Origin: an uncultured Candidatus Saccharibacteria bacterium
Lineage (GTDB): Bacteria; Patescibacteriota; Saccharimonadia; Saccharimonadales; SZUA-47
Direction: 5' to 3'
DNA: 64,000 bases
NCBI GenBank assembly: GCA_964419675.1
Contig: CAYQPN010000002.1
Coordinates: forward strand, 67,073 to 131,072
Below, piece after piece: positions 4,520-61,682 of the stretch. How positions within the stretch are numbered: position 1 is the stretch's first letter; every line of letters begins with the position of its first letter. The notes beneath the pieces were generated by a model. The model made no database searches and had not been told where the DNA came from. It saw nothing but the letters and a program-made list of their open reading frames with translations. The position numbers and the translations under genes are program-made.

Positions 4520-4762
4520 ATGGATTCATTATCAGAGTTACTAAAGTCAAATCGCCCGGCAGAGCCACCACAGATCAAGGCTCTTAAAGAATACGTCAAA
4601 AAGTTTCATGATGAACCAGCGCAAGCTAGAGTCGGTCAGCTTGGATATTCATTAACTGTTCCAAACTCTTCACTGGCCAGTAACTTACAGATGGAAATGC
4701 CCAAAATAGTTGAATACTGTAATTTGGATAAAAAACTATTTATCCGTATCGGCCACTTCTAG
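4520..4762 (+). CDS. Small conserved hypothetical protein, tentatively DUF721/DciA-like
   Basis: 80 aa. The segment YSLTVPNSSLASNLQMEMPKIVEYCN...LFIRIG is reminiscent of the DUF721 pattern. The call is weak. Confidence 0.3.
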   Translation: MDSLSELLKSNRPAEPPQIKALKEYVKKFHDEPAQARVGQLGYSLTVPNSSLASNLQMEMPKIVEYCNLDKKLFIRIGHF

Positions 4763-12660: not shown

Positions 12661-13349
12661 ACGACAATCAAGCAAAAGAAATCATAGACAAAATTATCGG
12701 TCAGATATTTGGATTACAAAATCCTTATACACTTGACCAGTTTGCCGCTAAGTTCGCTTTTGATATTCGCCTAACTTCAGAAGTATTTGATAGTACTACC
12801 GGTGAAAGTACTTGGGCTCAAAACACAAAGCACAATAAGTATGTCAAATTTGAGAGATTAATAACTTCAGATACTGACAGCATGGTCAGCAAGAAAGATG
12901 TTAACTCGATGGAAGATATATTGCACTACTGGCAAGAAACAAACTATACAGCAACCGAGCGCCACTTAAATTCAATGAATGTCGCAAAAAGTGATGCAAT
13001 CTATGGTTCTCAGAATATATATAGAAGTATTGACATACACGATTCTAAAAATGTAGTTTTCAGTGAAAGTAGCAATAATCTTGAATTTGCGGCAGCTATT
13101 CAGAGATCTAACAACTGTGTTTATTCTTTGAGAATCGACGACAGTAAAAAAGTTAGTAAGAGTTTTCAGGTTTCTTGGTCTGGAAACATATCTAATAGTT
13201 TCTTCATTAAAGATGCTAGCAATCTAGCAGACTGCATGTTCTGCTCGCAGATAACAGATAAGAGATTTTGCATTGCTAACATGCAATTTGAAGAAGCCGA
13301 ATACCGTAAATGGGAAAAAATCGTCAAAGCCTGGATACTAAGCAATTAA
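12657..13349 (+). CDS. Hypothetical protein with short Ser/Asn-rich repeats, translationally coupled to the ATPase
   Basis: ATGA stop/start overlap at 12657-12660. The C-terminal half shows a roughly 11-residue periodicity (GSQNIYRSIDI / DSKNVVFSESS / SNNCVYSLRID / DSKKVSKSFQV / GNISNSFFIKD / ASNLADCMFCS). No recognisable family. Confidence 0.6.
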   Translation: MNDNQAKEIIDKIIGQIFGLQNPYTLDQFAAKFAFDIRLTSEVFDSTTGESTWAQNTKHNKYVKFERLITSDTDSMVSKKDVNSMEDILHYWQETNYTATERHLNSMNVAKSDAIYGSQNIYRSIDIHDSKNVVFSESSNNLEFAAAIQRSNNCVYSLRIDDSKKVSKSFQVSWSGNISNSFFIKDASNLADCMFCSQITDKRFCIANMQFEEAEYRKWEKIVKAWILSN

Positions 13350-15664: not shown

Positions 15665-16798
15665 TTATTTTAAGTAGTCCATAAGTTTTTTGCTATCTTT
15701 GTGCTTTTTTAGTTTGGCAAGAGCTTTGGCTTCAATCTGGCGGATACGCTCACGAGTGACTGAAAATTCTTGCCCAACTTCTTCAAGTGTGTGGTTCTTG
15801 CCATCTTCTAGCCCAAACCTAAGCCGTAGAATTTTCTGCTCACGTTCACTTAGAGACGAAAGTAGGTCTTTTACGTGTTCTTTCAAAAGCTGACCTGTTG
15901 CCGACTCTTCAGGGGTTGCGGTGTCTTCGTCCTCGATAAAATCGCCTAAAACCGAGTCTTCTTCATCATCACGAACACTAGCATCTAGTGAACTAATATC
16001 TTGTTTGATTTTCATAATGTGCTCAACTTTTTCCACGTCTAGCTCCATGGCTTCTGCAATTTCTTCGTTTGTCGGCTCTCGGTTCAAATCCTGTGTTAAT
16101 CGACGTTGTGTTCTGAGTAGTTTATTGATTGTTTCAACCATGTGCACCGGAATACGAATTGTGCGAGCTTGGTCGGCGATAGCACGCGTGATGGCCTGTC
16201 TAATCCACCACGTAGCGTAAGTCGAAAACTTAAATCCTTTATCCGGGTCGAATTTTTCTACAGCCCTGAGTAAACCTGTATTCCCTTCCTGAATTAAATC
16301 AAGGAGGTCAAGCCCACGCCCTACATAACGTTTTGCGATCGAAACAACTAAACGCATATTTGCTTCAGCCATTTTGTCTTTAGCCCGTTTTTCCCCGGCT
16401 ACAACTCTGTGAGCTAGTGCTAGTTCTTCCTCAGATGTCAAAAGAGGTATCTTACCAATTTCGCGCAAGTAAAGACGAACTGAATCGTCAGCAACGTCAT
16501 CAAGATAACGCGTATCTTGTATAATTATTTCTTCATCATCTTCTTCTTCATCGGCCCAAGCATCTTTAGTACTGTTTCCAACAGGTACACCTGGGGCAGT
16601 AATTGCAATGTTTGCATCTGCAAGTTCTTCGTATAGCGCATCCAAAGCATCTATATTTTCAGGAGTTTCGGGCAATTCTTTAAGAATATATTTTTGGTCT
16701 ATCTTGCCATCCTTTTTTGCTTGGTCAAATAGTTCTTTAACTATATCTTCAACACTTTTATCGTCTTTATCTTCTTTAGGTGCTGGCTTTTTTGGCAT
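15665..16798 (-). CDS. rpoD: RNA polymerase primary sigma factor
   Basis: Regions 2-4 are recognisable: [62 protein letters not shown]. Confidence 0.95.
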
Positions 16799-31856: not shown

Positions 31857-32021
31857 TGGAGGAGAGGGAGAGATGAGTAGCCTAAATAATCTATGCGCCG
31901 AATGCAATTCGGGCACTAGACTATTTAGCGAGCTCTTTTTTGCTAAAGCAAAAAGTCAGGTTCGAATTCTTCCAGCTACAACAACACAGAAAGCCACGTC
32001 TATGGACACGACTTGTTGTAT
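31857..32021 (-). other. tRNA 3'-end echo module downstream of tRNA-Ser(UGA)
   Basis: The 18 nt at 31857-31874 (tggaggagagggagagat) repeat the tRNA 3' end 32022-32039 (tggcggagagggagagat) with one mismatch at the discriminator; the offset is 165. In between lie an 8-bp closing hairpin (TACAACAA...TTGTTGTA), a TTCGAA T-loop-like box (31961-31966) and two further hairpins. Confidence 0.6.
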
Positions 32022-32111
32022 TGGCGGAGAGGGAGAGATTCGAACTCTCGAGACCCTTGCGGGCCTGACGGTTTTCAAGACCGTTTCCTTAAACCACTCG
32101 GACACCTCTCC
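32022..32111 (-). tRNA. tRNA-Ser (anticodon UGA), CCA encoded
   Basis: Hand fold: acceptor GGAGAGG/CCTCTCC, D stem TCC/GGA, anticodon stem ACGGT/ACCGT with loop CTTGAAA, long variable arm, T arm GAGAG-TTCGAAT-CTCTC, G-CCA. Confidence 0.93.
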
Positions 32112-32156: not shown

Positions 32157-32246
32157 TGGCGGAGAGAGTGGGATTTGAACCCACGATACTCTTACGAGTA
32201 AACCGCCTTTCCAAGGCGGCGCCATAGGCCACTAGGCGACCTCTCC
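32157..32246 (-). tRNA. tRNA-Ser (anticodon GGA), CCA encoded
   Basis: Hand fold: acceptor GGAGAGG/TCTCTCC, anticodon stem CCGCC/GGCGG with loop TTGGAAA, long variable arm, T arm GTGGG-TTCAAAT-CCCAC, G-CCA. Confidence 0.93.
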
Positions 32247-53766: not shown

Positions 53767-54252
53767 CTAGGAATGAGTGCCCAATACTTCAACAATTTTT
53801 TGCTTGTGCTTATTAATAGCGTACATAAGCTGAGAGTGCAGTGGAGAAGGTAAGCTGTCTAGAGTAAACCAGCCTATCTCATCAATTACCCCTGGTTCAC
53901 CAATCTTGGCTTTGCTTCTATCAATTTGCATAATGTGGTCTATCGAAACCCAATGAGTTGGGGTGCCGTCATCTAACTTTCTGTGAACGTCTCGAAAACC
54001 AAGGGCTATAATGTTGTTCCCAGTCGTACAGAGTTCTTCTTCTAGTTCACGCAATAAGTTATCTTCTATTTTTTGGCCGTGTTTCAGCCCGCCACCCAAG
54101 ATATCCCATCTACCGTTTTCATCTCTGGCTTTGGGCCCGCGTTTCATCATTAAGAAGTTCCCTTTGCCATCATGGCAAAATGCAGCCGTGGTTACCCCAA
54201 CAAAACTTATGCCTTTGTGTGCTCTAAGTGTTTCTGAATCTAGCCTTTTCAT
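53767..54252 (-). CDS. NUDIX hydrolase
   Basis: Nudix box GGGLKHGQKIEDNLLRELEEELC. Confidence 0.85.
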   Translation of the reverse strand: MKRLDSETLRAHKGISFVGVTTAAFCHDGKGNFLMMKRGPKARDENGRWDILGGGLKHGQKIEDNLLRELEEELCTTGNNIIALGFRDVHRKLDDGTPTHWVSIDHIMQIDRSKAKIGEPGVIDEIGWFTLDSLPSPLHSQLMYAINKHKQKIVEVLGTHS

Positions 54253-54276: not shown

Positions 54277-54440
54277 TGGCGGAAGAGGTGGGGTTCGTCT
54301 TAACTTGCTCGCTCGAGAGCGTAAACGCATCTCGCTCAGCCAAGCATGGAAAACTCGAACATTCACAGAATGTTCTCGCCCTCTCGGGTTCGAACCTAGA
54401 TACTCGCCATCCTTCGTAGCCCTAGACAGGCGACGAAGGA
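54277..54440 (-). other. tRNA 3'-end echo module downstream of tRNA-Ser(CGA)
   Basis: The 21 nt at 54277-54297 (tggcggaagaggtggggttcg) are identical to the tRNA 3' end 54441-54461; the offset is 164. In tRNA orientation the order is as follows. First an 8-bp hairpin TCCTTCGT...ACGAAGGA directly after CCA. Then the box CTAGGTTCGAACCC (the tRNA has GTGGGTTCGAACCC). Then about 90 nt with hairpins (GAACATTC-TGT-GAATGTTC and others). Then the exact copy. Confidence 0.65.
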
Positions 54441-54531
54441 TGGCGGAAGAGGTGGGGTTCGAACCCACGTTAGGCTTTACCCTAAACACGATTTCGAATC
54501 GTGCGCCTTCAACCAGCTCAGCCACTCTTCC
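54441..54531 (-). tRNA. tRNA-Ser (anticodon CGA), CCA encoded
   Basis: Hand fold: acceptor GGAAGAG/CTCTTCC, D stem GCT/GGC, anticodon stem CACGA/TCGTG with loop TTCGAAA, variable arm TTAGG...CCTAA, T arm GTGGG-TTCGAAC-CCCAC, G-CCA. Confidence 0.93.
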
Positions 54532-54663
54532 ATATGCTAGTAATTATAGCCTAAAAATGATAAACTTACCTCTGTTGCAGTTTTGGGTTTCAATGTTGTT
54601 CTACCCAAAAAGTAATTCCGATTGCTTTTTGAGAAGGAAGAACTTTGTTAGAAGTTGAAGATT

Positions 54664-54692
54664 TTGCAGTCATTTGCAAAACGAAATATGAA
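54664..54692 (+). promoter_or_regulatory. Putative promoter of tRNA-Arg
   Basis: TTGCAG (54664-54669), 17 nt, TATGAA (54687-54692), 16 nt before the tRNA 5' end. Confidence 0.4.
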
Positions 54693-54707
54693 CAAAGGTT
54701 CTGACGC

Positions 54708-54784
54708 GCACCCGTAGCTCAGCTGGATAGAGCGTCTGTTTGCGGTACAGGAGGTCGTACGTTCGAATCGTATCGGGTGTACCA
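54708..54784 (+). tRNA. tRNA-Arg (anticodon GCG), CCA encoded
   Basis: Hand fold: acceptor GCACCCG/CGGGTGT (G1-U72), D arm GCTC-AGCTGGATA-GAGC, anticodon stem TCTGT/ACAGG with loop TTGCGGT, T arm GTACG-TTCGAAT-CGTAT, A-CCA. Confidence 0.9.
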
Positions 54785-54970
54785 CGAAAGTAGCCAGGTT
54801 TTATGCCTGGCTTTTTTCGTGATGCCACCGATTTGATACGTACGACCGAAAAGAGGTCGGAGGTGAGAAATGCCAATGGCATTTTGCAAGGAAACCTTCT
54901 CTTGAAAACTTGTTTTCTAAGAAGAAGTTTCAGGTCTGCAGAATGTGGGCGAGTCGTATCGGGTGTACCA
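54785..54970 (+). other. tRNA 3'-end echo module downstream of tRNA-Arg(GCG)
   Basis: The 17 nt at 54954-54970 (tcgtatcgggtgtacca) are identical to the tRNA 3' end 54768-54784; the offset is 186. The order runs: intrinsic terminator (54792-54817), then the box GTACGACCGAAA (54840-54851; the tRNA has GTACGTTCGAAT). About 100 nt with three hairpins follow, then the exact copy, then an A-rich stretch and a terminator-like hairpin. Confidence 0.65.
54792..54817 (+). terminator. Intrinsic terminator immediately 3' of tRNA-Arg
   Basis: AGCCAGG (54792-54798), 7-nt loop, CCTGGCT (54806-54812), then T6. Confidence 0.8.
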
Positions 54971-55020
54971 ATAAAAATGTCGAACTTTAGCTTCGGGCTT
55001 TTTTATTGGCTATATTATAC

Positions 55021-56930: not shown

Positions 56931-56957
56931 AAAACAAAAAAGTCCCTAAACGGGACT
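56931..56957 (-). terminator. Intrinsic terminator after the Ser(GCU) echo module
   Basis: On the minus strand: AGTCCC-GTTTA-GGGACT followed by TTTTTTGTTTT. Confidence 0.7.
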
Positions 56958-56965
56958 ATTTTGTT

Positions 56966-57141
56966 TGGCGGAGAGAGAGGGATTCGCCTGACCAGCAAAA
57001 CAAATATTAGTTTTGCTAAGGTCACCCCAAATCCAGTTGGTTTGGGGCTAAAGGTTCGGGGAGTGCCACTGGCACTCCCGTTCGAATCCTCCTCTTCAAT
57101 AAATAATAAAGCCCAGACAAATATGTCTGAGCTGTATTATT
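56966..57141 (-). other. tRNA 3'-end echo module downstream of tRNA-Ser(GCU)
   Basis: The 21 nt at 56966-56986 (tggcggagagagagggattcg) are identical to the tRNA 3' end 57142-57162; the offset is 176. In tRNA orientation the order is as follows. First the terminator (57101-57132). Then the box GAGGATTCGAAC (the tRNA has GAGGGTTCGAAT). Then three strong hairpins: GGGAGTGCCA/TGGCACTCCC, CCCCAAA/TTTGGGG, and TGACC..AGCAAAAC/GTTTTGCT..GGTCA. Then the exact copy and a second terminator. Confidence 0.65.
57101..57132 (-). terminator. Intrinsic terminator immediately 3' of tRNA-Ser(GCU)
   Basis: On the minus strand: GCTCAGACA-TATT-TGTCTGGGC (one G-U pair) followed by TTTATTATTT. Confidence 0.75.
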
Positions 57142-57234
57142 TGGCGGAGAGAGAGGGATTCGAACCCTCGCGGGAGATTTCTCCCCCCTAATGATTTAGC
57201 AAACCATCCCCTTGAGCCACTTGGGTACCTCTCC
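57142..57234 (-). tRNA. tRNA-Ser (anticodon GCU), CCA encoded
   Basis: Hand fold: acceptor GGAGAGG/TCTCTCC, D stem CCC/GGG, anticodon stem ATGGT/ATCAT with loop TTGCTAA, 21-nt variable arm, T arm GAGGG-TTCGAAT-CCCTC, G-CCA. Confidence 0.92.
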
Positions 57235-57402: not shown

Positions 57403-58077
57403 TTATATGTTCTGAGCAAAAACTGCGGCGTACACTCGCTTTGCTCCGGCAGATTTCAAAATCTTACTAGCTGCCGACAGAGAAGCGCCAGTTGTCATAA
57501 CATCGTCGATTAGTAAAATCGTTTTACCTGCAACAAACTCTTTGTTACTTACCATAAACTCGCTTTTCATATGTTCTATTCTATCTGCCCGACTTGAGCC
57601 CACCTGACGCCTATTAGTCTTCCTGCTGAGAAGCCTCATAGCCTCCCAATCTCTTAATTTACCCAGCTCATTAACCAGTAACTGTGCATGGTCAAAGCCA
57701 CGCTCTCTGATTCTTGACGGTGCGGTAGGCACACAGCACAGCACAATATCATCTGACAAAGGAGGAATTACGTCGTTCATAATTGACACAATGGCGCTAG
57801 CAGCTTGGCGCTGATACTCAAACTTGTAGCTTTTTATAAGTCTTTCGTTGGCACCTTCGTAAATTCCACAAACATACACTGCATAAGGTGTTAGCCATGA
57901 TCTACAGCTGTCACAAGTTCTAAAATTATCCGTCAAAGTAGTACACCCGGCACATCTAGGAACTAGAGGTTCATGAAAATTGAACTGACACGTTTTACAC
58001 AACACCTCTCCCTCAAGCCCACAACCAATACAAACATGGGGTGCCACCAGACCAGCTAATTTATCAAAAACTAACAT
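57403..58077 (-). CDS. comFC: ComF-family phosphoribosyltransferase-domain protein
   Basis: N-terminal Cys clusters (CIGCGLEGEVLCKTC, CAGC...CDSC) and the PRT motif ILLIDDVMTTGASL. Confidence 0.85.
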   Translation of the reverse strand: MLVFDKLAGLVAPHVCIGCGLEGEVLCKTCQFNFHEPLVPRCAGCTTLTDNFRTCDSCRSWLTPYAVYVCGIYEGANERLIKSYKFEYQRQAASAIVSIMNDVIPPLSDDIVLCCVPTAPSRIRERGFDHAQLLVNELGKLRDWEAMRLLSRKTNRRQVGSSRADRIEHMKSEFMVSNKEFVAGKTILLIDDVMTTGASLSAASKILKSAGAKRVYAAVFAQNI

Positions 58078-58926: not shown

Positions 58927-59325
58927 CTAAGCAGTTGCTTTATCAAGTACATATCGCACAATAACTTGTGCTAACGCAACGATTATTAAACCAACTACTG
59001 CGTAGAGTATCGTATTCTTTGCACCGGTTACGTTACCAGAATCGCCACCCGATGTAATATACTTCAAACCACCAATAATTATCATTATTACGGATATAAT
59101 ACCCACTGCAAGTGAAAATATGTTAATTACGTTTGTAATTAGCGAATTAACTTTAGTGTCGGCATCACCAGTTTCATCACAAGATGAATCTGTCGTGCTT
59201 AAACAGGTTCCTTTTTGCAATCCTTCGGTGATTGAAGCCGCTGATACCATTGAAGGTACTGCCATTGGCAACAATAGTCCTAATGAAGCTGCTAGGCTGA
59301 ACATAATTCTCTTTACTCGTGTCAT
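58927..59325 (-). CDS. VirB2/TrbC-like two-helix pilin-type protein (paralog 6, most promoter-distal)
   Basis: Signal peptide ...MAVPSMVSAAS, Cys pair (GTCLSTTDSSCDE), helix 1, loop GGLKYITSGGDSGNVTGAKNTILYAVVG, helix 2. Confidence 0.7.
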   Translation of the reverse strand: MTRVKRIMFSLAASLGLLLPMAVPSMVSAASITEGLQKGTCLSTTDSSCDETGDADTKVNSLITNVINIFSLAVGIISVIMIIIGGLKYITSGGDSGNVTGAKNTILYAVVGLIIVALAQVIVRYVLDKATA

Positions 59326-59400
59326 AGTTTGTTTACTTCCTTTTTTACTTATTTCTCTTAGATTAATTTATAGCACAATCACTATACTCTCACAACTTTT

Positions 59401-59874
59401 TTAGCAAGGACCGCCACCTGCATTGCGACAATCATTCTCGAATTGGGTAGCGTCTTGTCGTTGTGACTGGTTTAGCCCGTCATCTGCCTTATTTAGCACG
59501 AATCTGACCATTATTTGCGATAAAGCTACGATCATTAAACCTACCAGCGCGTACAGTACAGTATTTTTAGCAGAAGAAACATTTGAAGCATCACCTTGAG
59601 ACGTAATGAATTTTACACCCCCTACTATGATCACTATAACCGTGATGACACCAGCAACTATAGATAGCAGGCCCAGGGCGGTCGTCAAAATTCCATTTAA
59701 GCTACCGCTTGAGTCTCCACTATTACAGTTAGTGTTGCTATCGGTAACAGCCACACCCTCACAGGCAGCATTTTTGGCAGCATCAAATTGAGCAAAAGCG
59801 CCAGACCCTAATAGCGTTGTTGAAAGTCCCAGCGTTGATAGTGATATAGCGAGTGTTAATAATACTTTTTTCAT
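59401..59874 (-). CDS. VirB2/TrbC-like two-helix pilin-type protein (paralog 5)
   Basis: Signal peptide ...GSGAFAQ, Cys pair (AACEG...NCNSGD), loop GGVKFITSQGDASNVSSAKNTVLYALVG, and an extra C-terminal tail with a second Cys pair (NDCRNAGGGPC). Confidence 0.7.
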   Translation of the reverse strand: MKKVLLTLAISLSTLGLSTTLLGSGAFAQFDAAKNAACEGVAVTDSNTNCNSGDSSGSLNGILTTALGLLSIVAGVITVIVIIVGGVKFITSQGDASNVSSAKNTVLYALVGLMIVALSQIMVRFVLNKADDGLNQSQRQDATQFENDCRNAGGGPC

Positions 59875-59894
59875 CCAAATACCTCTTTTTCTGT

Positions 59895-60308
59895 TTAAAA
59901 TCGTCCTAATACAAACCTTACCGTAAGTTGTGAGGCTACGGCTATAATTATACCAACTGACGCATAAATTATTTGCATCCTGGATGTTGATATCTTATGG
60001 GAATCACCCCTGGAAAGTGTCATTCTTATCCCGGCAATCATAAATACAGCCACTGCGATAATACCCACCACAAATGACAATGCATTGAGAGCCTTGGTCA
60101 AGATCCCATCTTTCCCGTAGATCGGGTTGGTGGTTTTTGCGGTTTCAATATCTCTACAAATCGCCGGCACTTCGCCGTTGCCGAAGTCCCCGCTACAAAC
60201 ATCGTTAGATATGTCTACCTGAGCTCCGGCAGGCAAGACGGACAATGCAGGTACGAATAAGCTTAGAGCCAGACTCGCTGTTAAGACAAACCTTTTTAAT
60301 ATTTTCAT
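59895..60308 (-). CDS. VirB2/TrbC-like two-helix pilin-type protein (paralog 4)
   Basis: Signal peptide ...LPAGAQV, Cys pair (DVCSGDFGNGEVPAICRD), loop AGIRMTLSRGDSHKISTSRMQIIYASVG. Confidence 0.7.
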   Translation of the reverse strand: MKILKRFVLTASLALSLFVPALSVLPAGAQVDISNDVCSGDFGNGEVPAICRDIETAKTTNPIYGKDGILTKALNALSFVVGIIAVAVFMIAGIRMTLSRGDSHKISTSRMQIIYASVGIIIAVASQLTVRFVLGRF

Positions 60309-60628
60309 TTCAATACGTCCTTAAGAAGGAATATTACTATCAAATTTGCACTTAATGACACAACCAAGCCCACAAAAGCATAAATAATACCTTTTCTGGC
60401 ACTTGCAGCTTTTTCTGGGTCACCGCCAGACAAAATAAAATTCAAAGCCTGAACCATGATAATGATTGCTGTAACCGCAGAAATTGTAGCAAAAACAATT
60501 GTCAGCACAGTCTGCAAAGCACTCCCATCTGCATTAACCTGCGGGAGATTAGTAAGACACCCAGAATTCCCCGTTGATCCTTCGGGACAGTTTTTCACTT
60601 GAGCGAATAATTTTAGTATTGTTTCCAT
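60305..60628 (-). CDS. VirB2/TrbC-like two-helix pilin-type protein (paralog 3, shortest, no obvious signal peptide)
   Basis: Cys pair (KNCPEGSTGNSGC) and loop ALNFILSGGDPEKAASARKGIIYAFVG. 4-nt overlap with the downstream paralog. Confidence 0.65.
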   Translation of the reverse strand: METILKLFAQVKNCPEGSTGNSGCLTNLPQVNADGSALQTVLTIVFATISAVTAIIIMVQALNFILSGGDPEKAASARKGIIYAFVGLVVSLSANLIVIFLLKDVLK

Positions 60629-60633
60629 AATGA

Positions 60634-61077
60634 TTAATTAAAGCTGTTAGCGATAAATGACACCGCGGCCGATGCGATAACGGTTATTGTTAGACCAACC
60701 AATGCATTTATTGCTGTAGATTGTGCCTGCTTAGTTTTGTCTGGCGCTCCTTGACTAATAACATAACTAACACCACCGTATATTATAAAGCAAATTGCCA
60801 CTAAGGCGGCCACTCTTAGTAATATTTCAATAACTGCGGCAATAATTAACCACGTGTCATTTATGCCCTTAATATCCAAGTTACATACCGTTGCATTTGT
60901 TAATGGATCTGTGTCTATGTTGCTATCAAGATATTTATACCAGGTGGGGAACCCCAGAAAGGATGACTGAGCACACCTTGCAGCGTACGCTCTTGCTGAG
61001 CCAAAAAATATCCCGACCAGTAAAAAACTGTACATAAATACTATGAATATCTGGGTCAATCTTCTAATACGAATCAT
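60634..61077 (-). CDS. VirB2/TrbC-like two-helix pilin-type protein (paralog 2)
   Basis: N-terminal hydrophobic signal/anchor ...GSARAYAARC, second Cys (TVCNLD), loop YGGVSYVISQGAPDKTKQAQSTAINALVG. Confidence 0.68.
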   Translation of the reverse strand: MIRIRRLTQIFIVFMYSFLLVGIFFGSARAYAARCAQSSFLGFPTWYKYLDSNIDTDPLTNATVCNLDIKGINDTWLIIAAVIEILLRVAALVAICFIIYGGVSYVISQGAPDKTKQAQSTAINALVGLTITVIASAAVSFIANSFN

Positions 61078-61682
61078 ATGAACATCCCTCCAGGAACCAG
61101 AAAATTAGCAATTGCAAAAATAAATAAGTATAAAAACAGCGCAATAACACTATTAGTCACTCTCTTAATGGACGCCTCTGTGGATTGTGGGTTACCTCTT
61201 GAAGCTGAGTACTGTATCCCAGCCAAAATTATAGACCCAATAACTACTATCCCTACCCCAGCACTTAAAAACCTGAATAATGCAAAAGCCATATCAATGA
61301 TTGGGTTGACATCGTTAGACCCCGGGTAACTCTCTCCTCTACAGCCGATGTTAATACTCACTTTTACTACGTGTTCTCCCTTCCCGCACTGCCTACCATC
61401 TGCTCCTGTACTTGTATTCGTAGTACCTCCAGGGTTTATCGCCGTACATTCGCTTGGGTTTGAGCTACAAAAACTACTTGACTGAGATGCTGAATTATTC
61501 GTAGTGCTGTTAGTTGCTGAGCAGGGGGTACCATCATCGGGCTTTGTCGTCCCGTCCGGGCATGTTTGCAACGGTTCTGCCCATACTATGTTTGAACCGT
61601 AAATACTCCCAAGTGCCGTGAAGCTTAATAGCCCTACCACTATTAGAGTTAATAATTTGTTCTTAGCTTGTTTAATTTTCAT
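61074..61682 (-). CDS. VirB2/TrbC-like two-helix pilin-type protein (paralog 1, largest variable ectodomain)
   Basis: Signal peptide ...NIVWAEP, six Cys in a Thr/Ser/Asn-rich ectodomain, loop AGIQYSASRGNPQSTEASIKRVTNSVIA. First gene of the minus-strand array. Confidence 0.65.
   Translation of the reverse strand: MKIKQAKNKLLTLIVVGLLSFTALGSIYGSNIVWAEPLQTCPDGTTKPDDGTPCSATNSTTNNSASQSSSFCSSNPSECTAINPGGTTNTSTGADGRQCGKGEHVVKVSINIGCRGESYPGSNDVNPIIDMAFALFRFLSAGVGIVVIGSIILAGIQYSASRGNPQSTEASIKRVTNSVIALFLYLFIFAIANFLVPGGMFI

Follow-up and report, generated by a model that had tools for sequence, protein, structure and literature searches.

Here we describe a family of small, hairpin-rich, non-coding inserts that follow tRNA genes in Saccharibacteria, and that were recognised behind four of the five tRNA genes in a 64-kb window (the whole stretch of DNA that was analysed, 64,000 nucleotides on a 194-kb contig of a Saccharimonadales genome). 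Each insert, hereafter a module, is closed by a copy of the 3′ end of the tRNA that precedes it. Since the same kind of insert lies behind at least 20 kinds of tRNA, it most likely represents an undescribed family of miniature mobile DNA that uses tRNA genes as landing sites. In the reading that we favour, to which we assign a probability of roughly one half, modules are miniature non-coding, non-autonomous, structure-dependent integrative cassettes of 118–190 nt that target the T-loop and 3′ end of tRNA genes. Mobile DNA is generally regarded as scarce in ultra-small bacteria, Saccharibacteria included, and we found no description of such modules in the literature.

ARAGORN was used to locate tRNA genes in the window, and a suffix search together with a repeat finder to locate copies of their 3′ ends, which we call echoes. 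The five genes found are exactly those named in an initial annotation of this DNA, and the echoes that it had reported are present at the four tRNA genes with a module, at a downstream distance (period) of 164–186 nt. Behind the intact tRNA-Ser(CGA) gene, which encodes its own CCA (54441–54531, minus strand; 54.1 bits with the Rfam tRNA model), the segment 54277–54297 equals 54441–54461 at all 21 of 21 nt (tRNA positions 56–76, period 164; 100% in the repeat finder). The intact tRNA-Arg(GCG) (54708–54784, plus strand) is followed by an exact 17-nt copy of positions 60–76 (54954–54970 against 54768–54784, 17/17, period 186), which, if lengthened into the T-loop, is identical at 23 of 26 nt. For the intact tRNA-Ser(GCU) (57142–57234, minus strand), 56966–56986 matches 57142–57162 at 21 of 21 nt (positions 56–76, period 176); the Arg and Ser(GCU) copies were returned by both the suffix search and the repeat finder. 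The intact tRNA-Ser(UGA) (32022–32111, minus strand) has the least perfect echo, recovered by the repeat finder (31857–31874 against 32022–32039, positions 59–76, 17/18, period 165), the sole mismatch being a change of the discriminator from G to T. The last three genes, too, were called by both ARAGORN and Rfam. Identity in the window echoes begins inside the T-loop, at tRNA positions 56–60, and runs through CCA, as had been proposed. The fifth gene, tRNA-Ser(GGA) (32157–32246, minus strand; ARAGORN), serves as a control: the suffix search returned no copy of its 3′ end, in agreement with the initial annotation, and tRNA-Ser(UGA) follows it 45 nt on. We calculate that an exact match of 17 nt or more would arise by chance in a stretch of 200 nt with a probability of about 1e-8 per tRNA.

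Related loci were gathered with valyl-tRNA synthetase (ValRS) as the anchor, which gave 80 Saccharibacteria loci in which the same Ser/Arg tRNA cluster is present (labels such as L002 or L055 denote the fetched loci of relatives). The closest ValRS to that of the window is 74% identical, and a 432-aa neighbouring protein, used to seek close relatives, has no homologue beyond itself, so that no sister strain is available for a fine comparison of empty and filled sites. Scanning 144 tRNAs of related loci revealed about 22 further exact 3′-end copies of 17–21 nt, located 118–190 nt downstream, the commonest copy length being 18 nt, which corresponds to tRNA positions 59–76. With four profile hidden Markov models (HMMs), a module was detected at 25 of 142 tRNAs in 19 of 81 loci; the same tRNA carries a module in some genomes and none in others, and many of the 3′ copies are decayed. 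The interiors of the modules, which had been thought not obviously homologous to one another, proved to be homologous across genomes and tRNAs, with at least four sequence types common to different tRNAs and to distant genomes whose ValRS are only 55–70% identical. The relative of the window Arg module in L055, for instance, ends in the 3′ end of a tRNA-Ser.

Read in tRNA orientation, the order of parts is the tRNA, a hairpin (T1), an antisense copy of the T-arm, a sense copy of tRNA positions 47–57, a conserved and covarying hairpin (P3) at T-loop position 58/59, and an exact or decaying copy of positions 59–76. The terminator hairpin noted earlier after tRNA-Arg and tRNA-Ser(GCU) is terminator-like in a terminator scan, as is T1 of Ser(UGA). 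The segment behind it had been described as a degenerate copy of the T-stem 5′ strand; we interpret it instead as the local T-arm copied in reverse complement: at the Arg module, CGATTTGATACGTACGACC matches the reverse complement of tRNA positions 45–62, and in almost every module the segment after T1 is the reverse complement of the local tRNA over approximately positions 47–65, sometimes as far as CCA (in L175 it is a perfect reverse complement of positions 62–76). This antisense box has a mean score of 16.6 against its own tRNA versus 13.0 against other tRNAs (Wilcoxon p = 2e-4). The sense copy of positions 47–57 is found in types II and III, where it is often exact over 11 nt to the local tRNA (TCGTAGGTTCG, TCGGAGGTTCG) and where the long P3 hairpin comes after T-loop position 58 and is succeeded by the exact 59–76 copy. 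In type IV, to which the window Arg module belongs, the large structured part lies inside the apical loop of P2, and in type I the entire interior lies between the box and a 3′ copy that spans positions 56–76. The antisense box pairs with both sense halves, so that in minimum-free-energy (MFE) folds P1, P2 and P3 meet in a three-way junction and the NCCA tail stays free. The antisense copy, this junction anatomy and the homology between interiors had all been overlooked by the initial annotation. Immediately behind the ...GCCA end, GGAAG(A/G) is very often seen, in many loci (for example, L036:18421–18440, L037 Ser(CGA), L044:18526 and 18818, L059, L002:17225); it is complementary to the acceptor 3′ strand, which allows a hairpin with GCCA as its loop where a tRNA or echo ends.

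A metagenome scan with the type II P3 motif hit at least 120 loci. Among the matches listed, about 64 distinct real modules remain once chance matches in coding DNA of unrelated organisms are dropped, modules with an adjoining tRNA lie 81–125 nt behind it, and roughly half have an exact 3′ copy of 14–18 nt. The tRNAs that are hit comprise at least about 20 isoacceptors, including Arg (GCG, CCU, UCG), Asn, Pro, Met, Ser, Ile, Glu, Gln, Tyr, Lys, Trp, Val, Ala, Phe and Asp, and in many metagenomic modules the 47–57 copy exactly matches the local tRNA. The initial annotation had allowed for the possibility that modules are restricted to these four loci, a result that would have spoken against a functional role; the family is instead widespread, in relatives as well as in metagenomes.

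Covariation in P3 was examined on a trimmed alignment of 64 distinct type II copies, with a structure that we named ourselves. In this alignment 92% of the cells are paired, and changes to both partners of a pair affect 127 cells, compared with 33.5 in shuffles (a value reached by 0 of 500 shuffles); sliding the partner columns lowers pairing to 23–45%. The outer stem of P3 covaries (CG, AU, UA, GC), and the inner part is invariant, consisting of AGTCT/AGATT with a G·T pair, an unpaired T and a bulged C, an invariance that was partly imposed by the search pattern, the 5′ strand AGTCT lying outside that pattern. Types II and III have homologous apical motifs, and the apical and outer stems of type III likewise covary (for example, GGTG/CACC, GGAG/CTCC and GAAG/CTTC). 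Compared with dinucleotide shuffles, the post-terminator parts of the window modules are more stably folded (z-scores of −2.3 to −6.2). When types II and III were aligned together with MAFFT, the alignment was gappy and RNAalifold returned no consensus. A kink-turn in the type III internal loop was considered and rejected on inspection owing to a misfit of register.

Such constraint might be expected of a functional RNA, produced by read-through of T1 and tRNA-like processing, or acting in cis on the precursor, and ending in a 3′ part that mimics an acceptor/T minihelix with an NCCA end. Its 5′ anti-T-arm could pair with the copy in the module or with the real T-arm as a switch or decoy, and its candidate partners would be tRNA-processing, -modifying or -targeting proteins. 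An RNA of this kind, one of the possibilities raised in the initial annotation as a non-coding RNA ending in NCCA, agrees with the strong covariation of P3 and of the type III apical and outer stems, with a G·U pair on the tRNA-sense strand that is invariant in 64 of 64 sequences, with MFE folds that consistently give a three-way junction with a closing stem and a free NCCA tail, and with an antisense box that follows the local tRNA. Module orientation is always that of the tRNA, and L091 retains a perfect 3′ copy without a tRNA. We nevertheless consider a functional RNA rather unlikely, since the module is set apart from its tRNA by the intrinsic-terminator-like T1 (a second such hairpin, T2, lies behind the Ser(GCU) echo), a scan detected no promoter-like site within any window module, the 3′ copy is decayed in about half of the modules, and presence varies between related genomes, in some of which modules stand in tandem arrays. 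Nor is there a consistent bias between sense and antisense strands in fold energy or G·U counts; the sense strand is the more stable in 11 of 25 cases (p = 0.28), and with both strands folding about equally well there is no evidence for strand-specific selection on an RNA. The conserved C·A mismatch of type III would moreover be a G·U pair on the opposite strand. In a permissive Rfam 15 scan of 27.5 kb only the five tRNAs pass, and the trailers yield no family match, nothing at E ≤ 1 other than weak overlaps with the tRNAs.

Three other accounts were tried and rejected. Tandem duplication of a tRNA, or a tRNA pseudogene, would not explain why only positions ~47–76 are copied, why ARAGORN and Rfam are blank there, and why the period is greater than a tRNA plus spacer. 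A miniature inverted-repeat transposable element with fixed terminal repeats is at odds with a left arm that tracks the local tRNA and with a 17–21-nt duplication that is always the tRNA 3′ end. In a third account, similar to a retroviral primer-binding site, the 18-nt copy would reflect a stop at m1A58 and the antisense box would be the primer-binding site; counting against it, the antisense copy in fresh modules such as L009 falls short of the complement of CCA, and no reverse transcriptase is in sight.

Modules also occur in arrays: in those of L003, L044, L059, L002, L054 and L010 the copy next to the tRNA is exact and the farther one has decayed, and in the L036 array both copies are exact. 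Near-identical inserts are found at two loci of one genome, both in L028, where the P3+P4 block is common and the flanks differ, and in L002, where a type IV insert is repeated. T1-plus-box units and P3 types are combined in mosaic fashion, between L037 and L059 (T1 and box in common, P3 types different) and within L044. One module event looks very recent: in L009:6330–6520, a direct repeat of 62 nt, made up of positions 59–76 plus a whole 43-nt terminator, flanks a 126-nt interior. The closely related contigs L081, L153 and L189 have one or two copies of the same module behind tRNA-Arg(GCG) with an identical downstream flank, a copy-number polymorphism that is compatible with unequal crossing-over or tandem duplication.

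A block of identity that starts in the T-loop and runs on to the 3′ end is the classic hallmark of the tRNA-targeting class of integration. Together with the presence/absence polymorphism, the arrays with decayed distal copies, the near-identical inserts at two loci of one genome and the recurrence of the same interiors behind unrelated tRNAs, this block makes scars or miniature elements of T-loop-targeting integration the best supported of the explanations that the initial annotation had offered, which are supported in part. Considered along with the leading terminator and the lack of strand bias, the same block, polymorphism, arrays and decay agree with site-specific integration at tRNA genes and later accretion, as known for integrative and conjugative elements (ICEs), integrative and mobilizable elements (IMEs) and cis-mobilizable elements (CIMEs) (PMC5704250). 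Plain scars would be deletion remnants of prophages, ICEs or IMEs at a T-loop att site, of which attL, attR and att-proximal DNA are left, similar to CIMEs. Larger blocks with boundaries of this kind, which count in favour of integrative cassettes as well as of such an origin, do exist. L030:14795–16620 contains a 1.6-kb islet flanked by an intact tRNA-Arg(GCG) and, at 16440–16506, by its 5′-truncated copy, the only tRNA 3′-end copy found more than 400 nt away; it holds a PP2C-like protein (by eye) and two small open reading frames (ORFs) that resemble an antitoxin/PIN toxin pair, and no integrase. In L151:2730–9315, 6.5 kb of ordinary genes are bounded by 74-nt, 97% identical direct repeats of a tRNA-Asn module, each comprising the T-stem 5′ copy and P3, with a partial third copy inside the block at 4661–4687; the genes encode a NUDIX protein, a CofE-like (F420-ligase-like) ligase, Ham1, a phosphoribosyltransferase, a methyltransferase and an FAD (DAO) oxidoreductase, and here again no integrase is present. 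The modules themselves are nevertheless small and uniform (118–190 nt), their interiors are conserved and covarying across distant genomes and tRNAs and have no match in phage and viral collections, a full element with an integrase sits at such a junction in none of about 200 loci, and an antisense copy of the local tRNA would be unexpected. With their small uniform size, covarying interior, antisense local copy and one interior type behind about 20 tRNAs, the modules do not fit plain scars, which we regard as very unlikely. A separate observation concerns a conserved TTGGTTCTAAC..(A/T)GCT(G/A)(T/C)ACCA fragment that recurs beside modules or islets of different genomes (L030:16577–16617; L045 at about 13140–13172; L126 at about 60–95) and looks like a relic 3′ third of some tRNA.

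If modules are integrative cassettes, their insertion would proceed by site-specific recombination at the T-loop and 3′ end of a tRNA gene. The incoming unit would supply the tRNA with a new 3′ end and terminator, and the old 3′ end, displaced downstream, would become the echo, as in the classical scheme for att sites in tRNA genes. The element's own site of recombination is probably used in a folded form, either single-stranded or as a cruciform, in which the antisense box would pair with the two sense halves and rebuild a duplex of T-arm sequence. The invariant part of P3, with its G·T pair, unpaired T and bulged C, may then be the protein-recognised feature that defines the strand, and the recombining enzyme would presumably act in trans.

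Several observations weigh against integrative cassettes. No mobilising gene has come to light: the window contains no integrase, as the initial annotation had stated, according to a crude tyrosine-recombinase motif scan and inspection by eye (with Pfam applied to six ORFs), and its ORFs look like housekeeping genes by eye; the same crude scan, which excludes only canonical box II motifs, found no tyrosine recombinase in about 2 Mb of fetched loci; and among 117 ORFs located up to 3.5 kb from 56 metagenomic modules, recombinase, transposase and reverse-transcriptase families do not recur, the commonest families being hydrolases, NUDIX proteins and phosphoribosyltransferases. Nor was an autonomous relative found, with no blastn match of modules in INPHARED phages and no match of the type I, II and III patterns in IMG/VR. 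Neither circular forms nor empty sites were seen inside any one population. An inverted copy of the local target is not accounted for by any integration mechanism known to us. A unit bearing the 3′ end of a given tRNA is unable to move directly to a different one, and movement from tRNA to tRNA needs an extra step, either mobility of P3 alone or recombination between modules. Finally, L091 and L145 have a perfect tRNA-Asn 3′ copy with only a decayed fragment, and no tRNA-Asn gene, upstream, which hints at constraint on the 3′ copy itself, and the arrays of L153 and L189 look like simple tandem duplications.

An origin in two local steps, with no dedicated integrase, would account for the inverted copy in another way. 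As proposed here, template switching during replication or fold-back at the terminator hairpin would first give the arrangement A - T1 - A′ - A, a palindromic plus direct duplication of the tRNA 3′ third, and a hairpin element (P3, being REP/REPIN-like or IS200/IS605-PATE-like and HUH-mobilised) would then enter the T-loop TTCGR of the spare copy. Ser(CGA), Arg and L175 do have an antisense copy that opens, directly behind T1, with the reverse complement of CCA, which is what fold-back would predict; the P3(+P4) block alone is near-identical at the two L028 loci with differing flanks; 5′ parts and P3 types are mosaic in L037 versus L059; and the invariant core of P3 with its extrahelical bases resembles the hairpins of Y1 transposases. 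We still judge this origin quite unlikely, as one and the same rare rearrangement would have to arise at about 20 different tRNAs, T1-plus-box units are common to different tRNAs and genomes (within L044, and between L037 and L059), and no Y1/HUH or RAYT gene turned up in a search that was not systematic.

An extension of the integrative-cassette reading, itself rather doubtful, is that the tRNA genes of Saccharibacteria are integron-like platforms, in which cassettes enter at T-loop position 58/59, mostly empty and some with genes (as in L151), through a folded single-strand att site and a trans-acting recombinase directed by P3. No intI was found next to modules, and neither the motif scan nor the neighbouring gene families placed a tyrosine recombinase near any module.

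The four window modules differ in the details of these parts. Behind tRNA-Ser(CGA), on the minus strand, T1 (54405–54445; an inverted repeat of 17 nt, 94% complementary) has a stem that takes in the terminal CGCCA of the tRNA. The antisense copy of the tRNA 3′ third, TGGCG...GGTTCGAACCC (54386–54409), begins with the reverse complement of CGCCA, and module positions 45–55 are the reverse complement of tRNA positions 51–61; the interior hairpins (54298–54385; fold z = −2.3) are loosely of type IV (HMM E = 1.6e-22). On the plus strand, the Arg T1 (54785–54819) is an intrinsic-terminator-like hairpin straight after CCA, with a stem-loop at 54792–54812 and then a T run. The antisense copy of the local tRNA-Arg 3′ third follows at 54820–54847 (module positions 45–63 against the reverse complement of tRNA positions 45–62), its right half, CGTACGACC, being the exact reverse complement of positions 45–53. 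The type IV interior (54848–54953; HMM match, fold z = −2.7) includes the hairpins GAAATGCCAATGGCATTT and CTTCTCTTGAAAAC/GTTTTCTAAGAAGAAG among several and is 82% identical over 85 nt to L055 and 75–76% identical to L038, L003 and L002. Behind the echo, a second hairpin with a T run (T2, 54971–55009), read from the sequence, not called in the terminator scan and therefore less certain, is convergent with the gene for the 432-aa protein. The tRNA-Arg(GCG) gene itself (54708–54784) has a G1·U72 acceptor pair and a T-stem of GTACG/CGTAT where related genomes have GTAGG or GCAGG; this unusual T-stem sequence is found again in the antisense box of the Arg module.

The Ser(GCU) module lies on the minus strand and comprises a terminator-like T1 (57102–57141, stem 57110–57133), an antisense copy of tRNA positions 53–68 (AGAGGAGGATTCGAAC, 57080–57095; 16 nt, 88% complementary to the tRNA), a type I interior of three hairpins (56987–57079; fold z = −6.2) and a terminator-like T2 behind the echo (56941–56957, from the terminator scan); over 116 nt it shares 76% identity with the module that follows tRNA-Ser(UGA) in L037. 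At the window tRNA-Ser(UGA), also on the minus strand, a weakly terminator-like T1 (31991–32014, terminator scan) is followed by an antisense T-arm box that matches the reverse complement of the tRNA (GGAAGAATTCGAAC, 31960–31973) and by a type II P3 hairpin (CTAAATAGTCTAGTGCCCGAAT...ATTCGGCGCATAGATTATTTAG, 31882–31928), a member of the P3 alignment, which has a degenerate T-stem 5′ copy on one side and the echo on the other.

Next to modules, in the window (53767–54252, 57403–58077), in L151 and among the 117 metagenomic ORFs, the most recurrent families are NUDIX hydrolases, phosphoribosyltransferases and alpha/beta hydrolases. Elsewhere in the window, at 58927–61682 on the minus strand, five tandem small ORFs encode paralogous membrane proteins with a C-terminal motif, ..GG.K/R.I.S.GD....K....YA.VG.., that by eye in the translations recalls pilins of the TrbC/VirB2 type.

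Whatever their nature, modules are a compact, abundant and structured family behind many tRNA genes that sometimes brackets ordinary gene blocks, and for annotation their echoes could be mistaken for prophage att sites or tRNA fragments. If mobile, they would represent a new use of the universal tRNA T-arm as a landing pad, possibly by way of folded DNA, and would imply a recombinase acting in trans as well as portable repeats able to drive rearrangement in reduced genomes. Were the integron-like platform to be borne out, it would amount to a new class of structure-dependent site-specific recombination and a route for gene shuffling in ultra-small genomes. If they are RNAs, modules would form a new family of tRNA 3′-end mimics, and only then do the plant mitochondrial t-elements and the tRNA-like domains of tmRNA and YrlA become relevant, which have in common with modules an acceptor/T-stack-like helix and a free NCCA end; modules differ from t-elements and minihelices in having no Rfam match, a long hairpin for the T-loop, a degenerate 5′ strand and a terminator upstream.

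Among mobile DNA, modules resemble REP/REPIN sequences (repetitive extragenic palindromes) and the palindrome-associated transposable elements (PATEs) of IS200/IS605 insertion sequences in being short, extragenic, hairpin-forming and often associated with terminators, and in their invariant hairpin core and covarying stem; REP/REPIN sequences and PATEs are non-autonomous and mobilised in trans as single strands, as modules may be. These elements, unlike modules, have no link to tRNA 3′ ends, no 18-nt target duplication and no antisense copy of the target, and no RAYT or TnpA gene was seen here in a non-systematic search, the window spanning 64 kb of its genome. A further likeness, by inference, is to the folded single-stranded attP of CTX-type phages that use Xer, in which inverted half-sites pair into a target-like duplex; those are whole phages whose target is dif, whereas single-stranded intermediates of modules and an involvement of Xer would be hypothetical.

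Closer parallels are found among tRNA-targeting integrative elements and CIMEs, whose direct repeats are likewise the 3′ part of a tRNA from the T-loop onwards, whose insertion leaves the tRNA intact, and which show tandem accretion and both empty and filled sites in related genomes. A CIME is by definition without an integrase in cis, as are the modules (PMC5704250). Modules, in contrast, are 10–100 times smaller, uniform and free of gene remnants, with a conserved covarying interior, an inverted target copy and one interior type for about 20 tRNAs, and a non-exhaustive search found neither an autonomous parent nor an integrase-bearing element with the same att site. Integrons differ from modules in other respects: modules have no intI, attI or Pc, their platform is a tRNA gene, most units are without an ORF, and their topology is a three-way junction where attC is a single hairpin. 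Like attC sites, cassettes and CALIN arrays (clusters of attC sites lacking an integron integrase), modules nonetheless appear to combine an imperfect hairpin, a conserved base, extrahelical bases (in P3, an unpaired T and a bulged C) and a variable apex; their units are arrayed beside a fixed platform, and gene-carrying units are sometimes bounded by sites, as in L151. The AAC...GTT polarity may also be common to both, in that the module box YGAAC pairs with GTTCGR where R″ RYYYAAC pairs with R′ GTTRRRY, a correspondence read from the sequences in which the R-box consensus is only partly matched.

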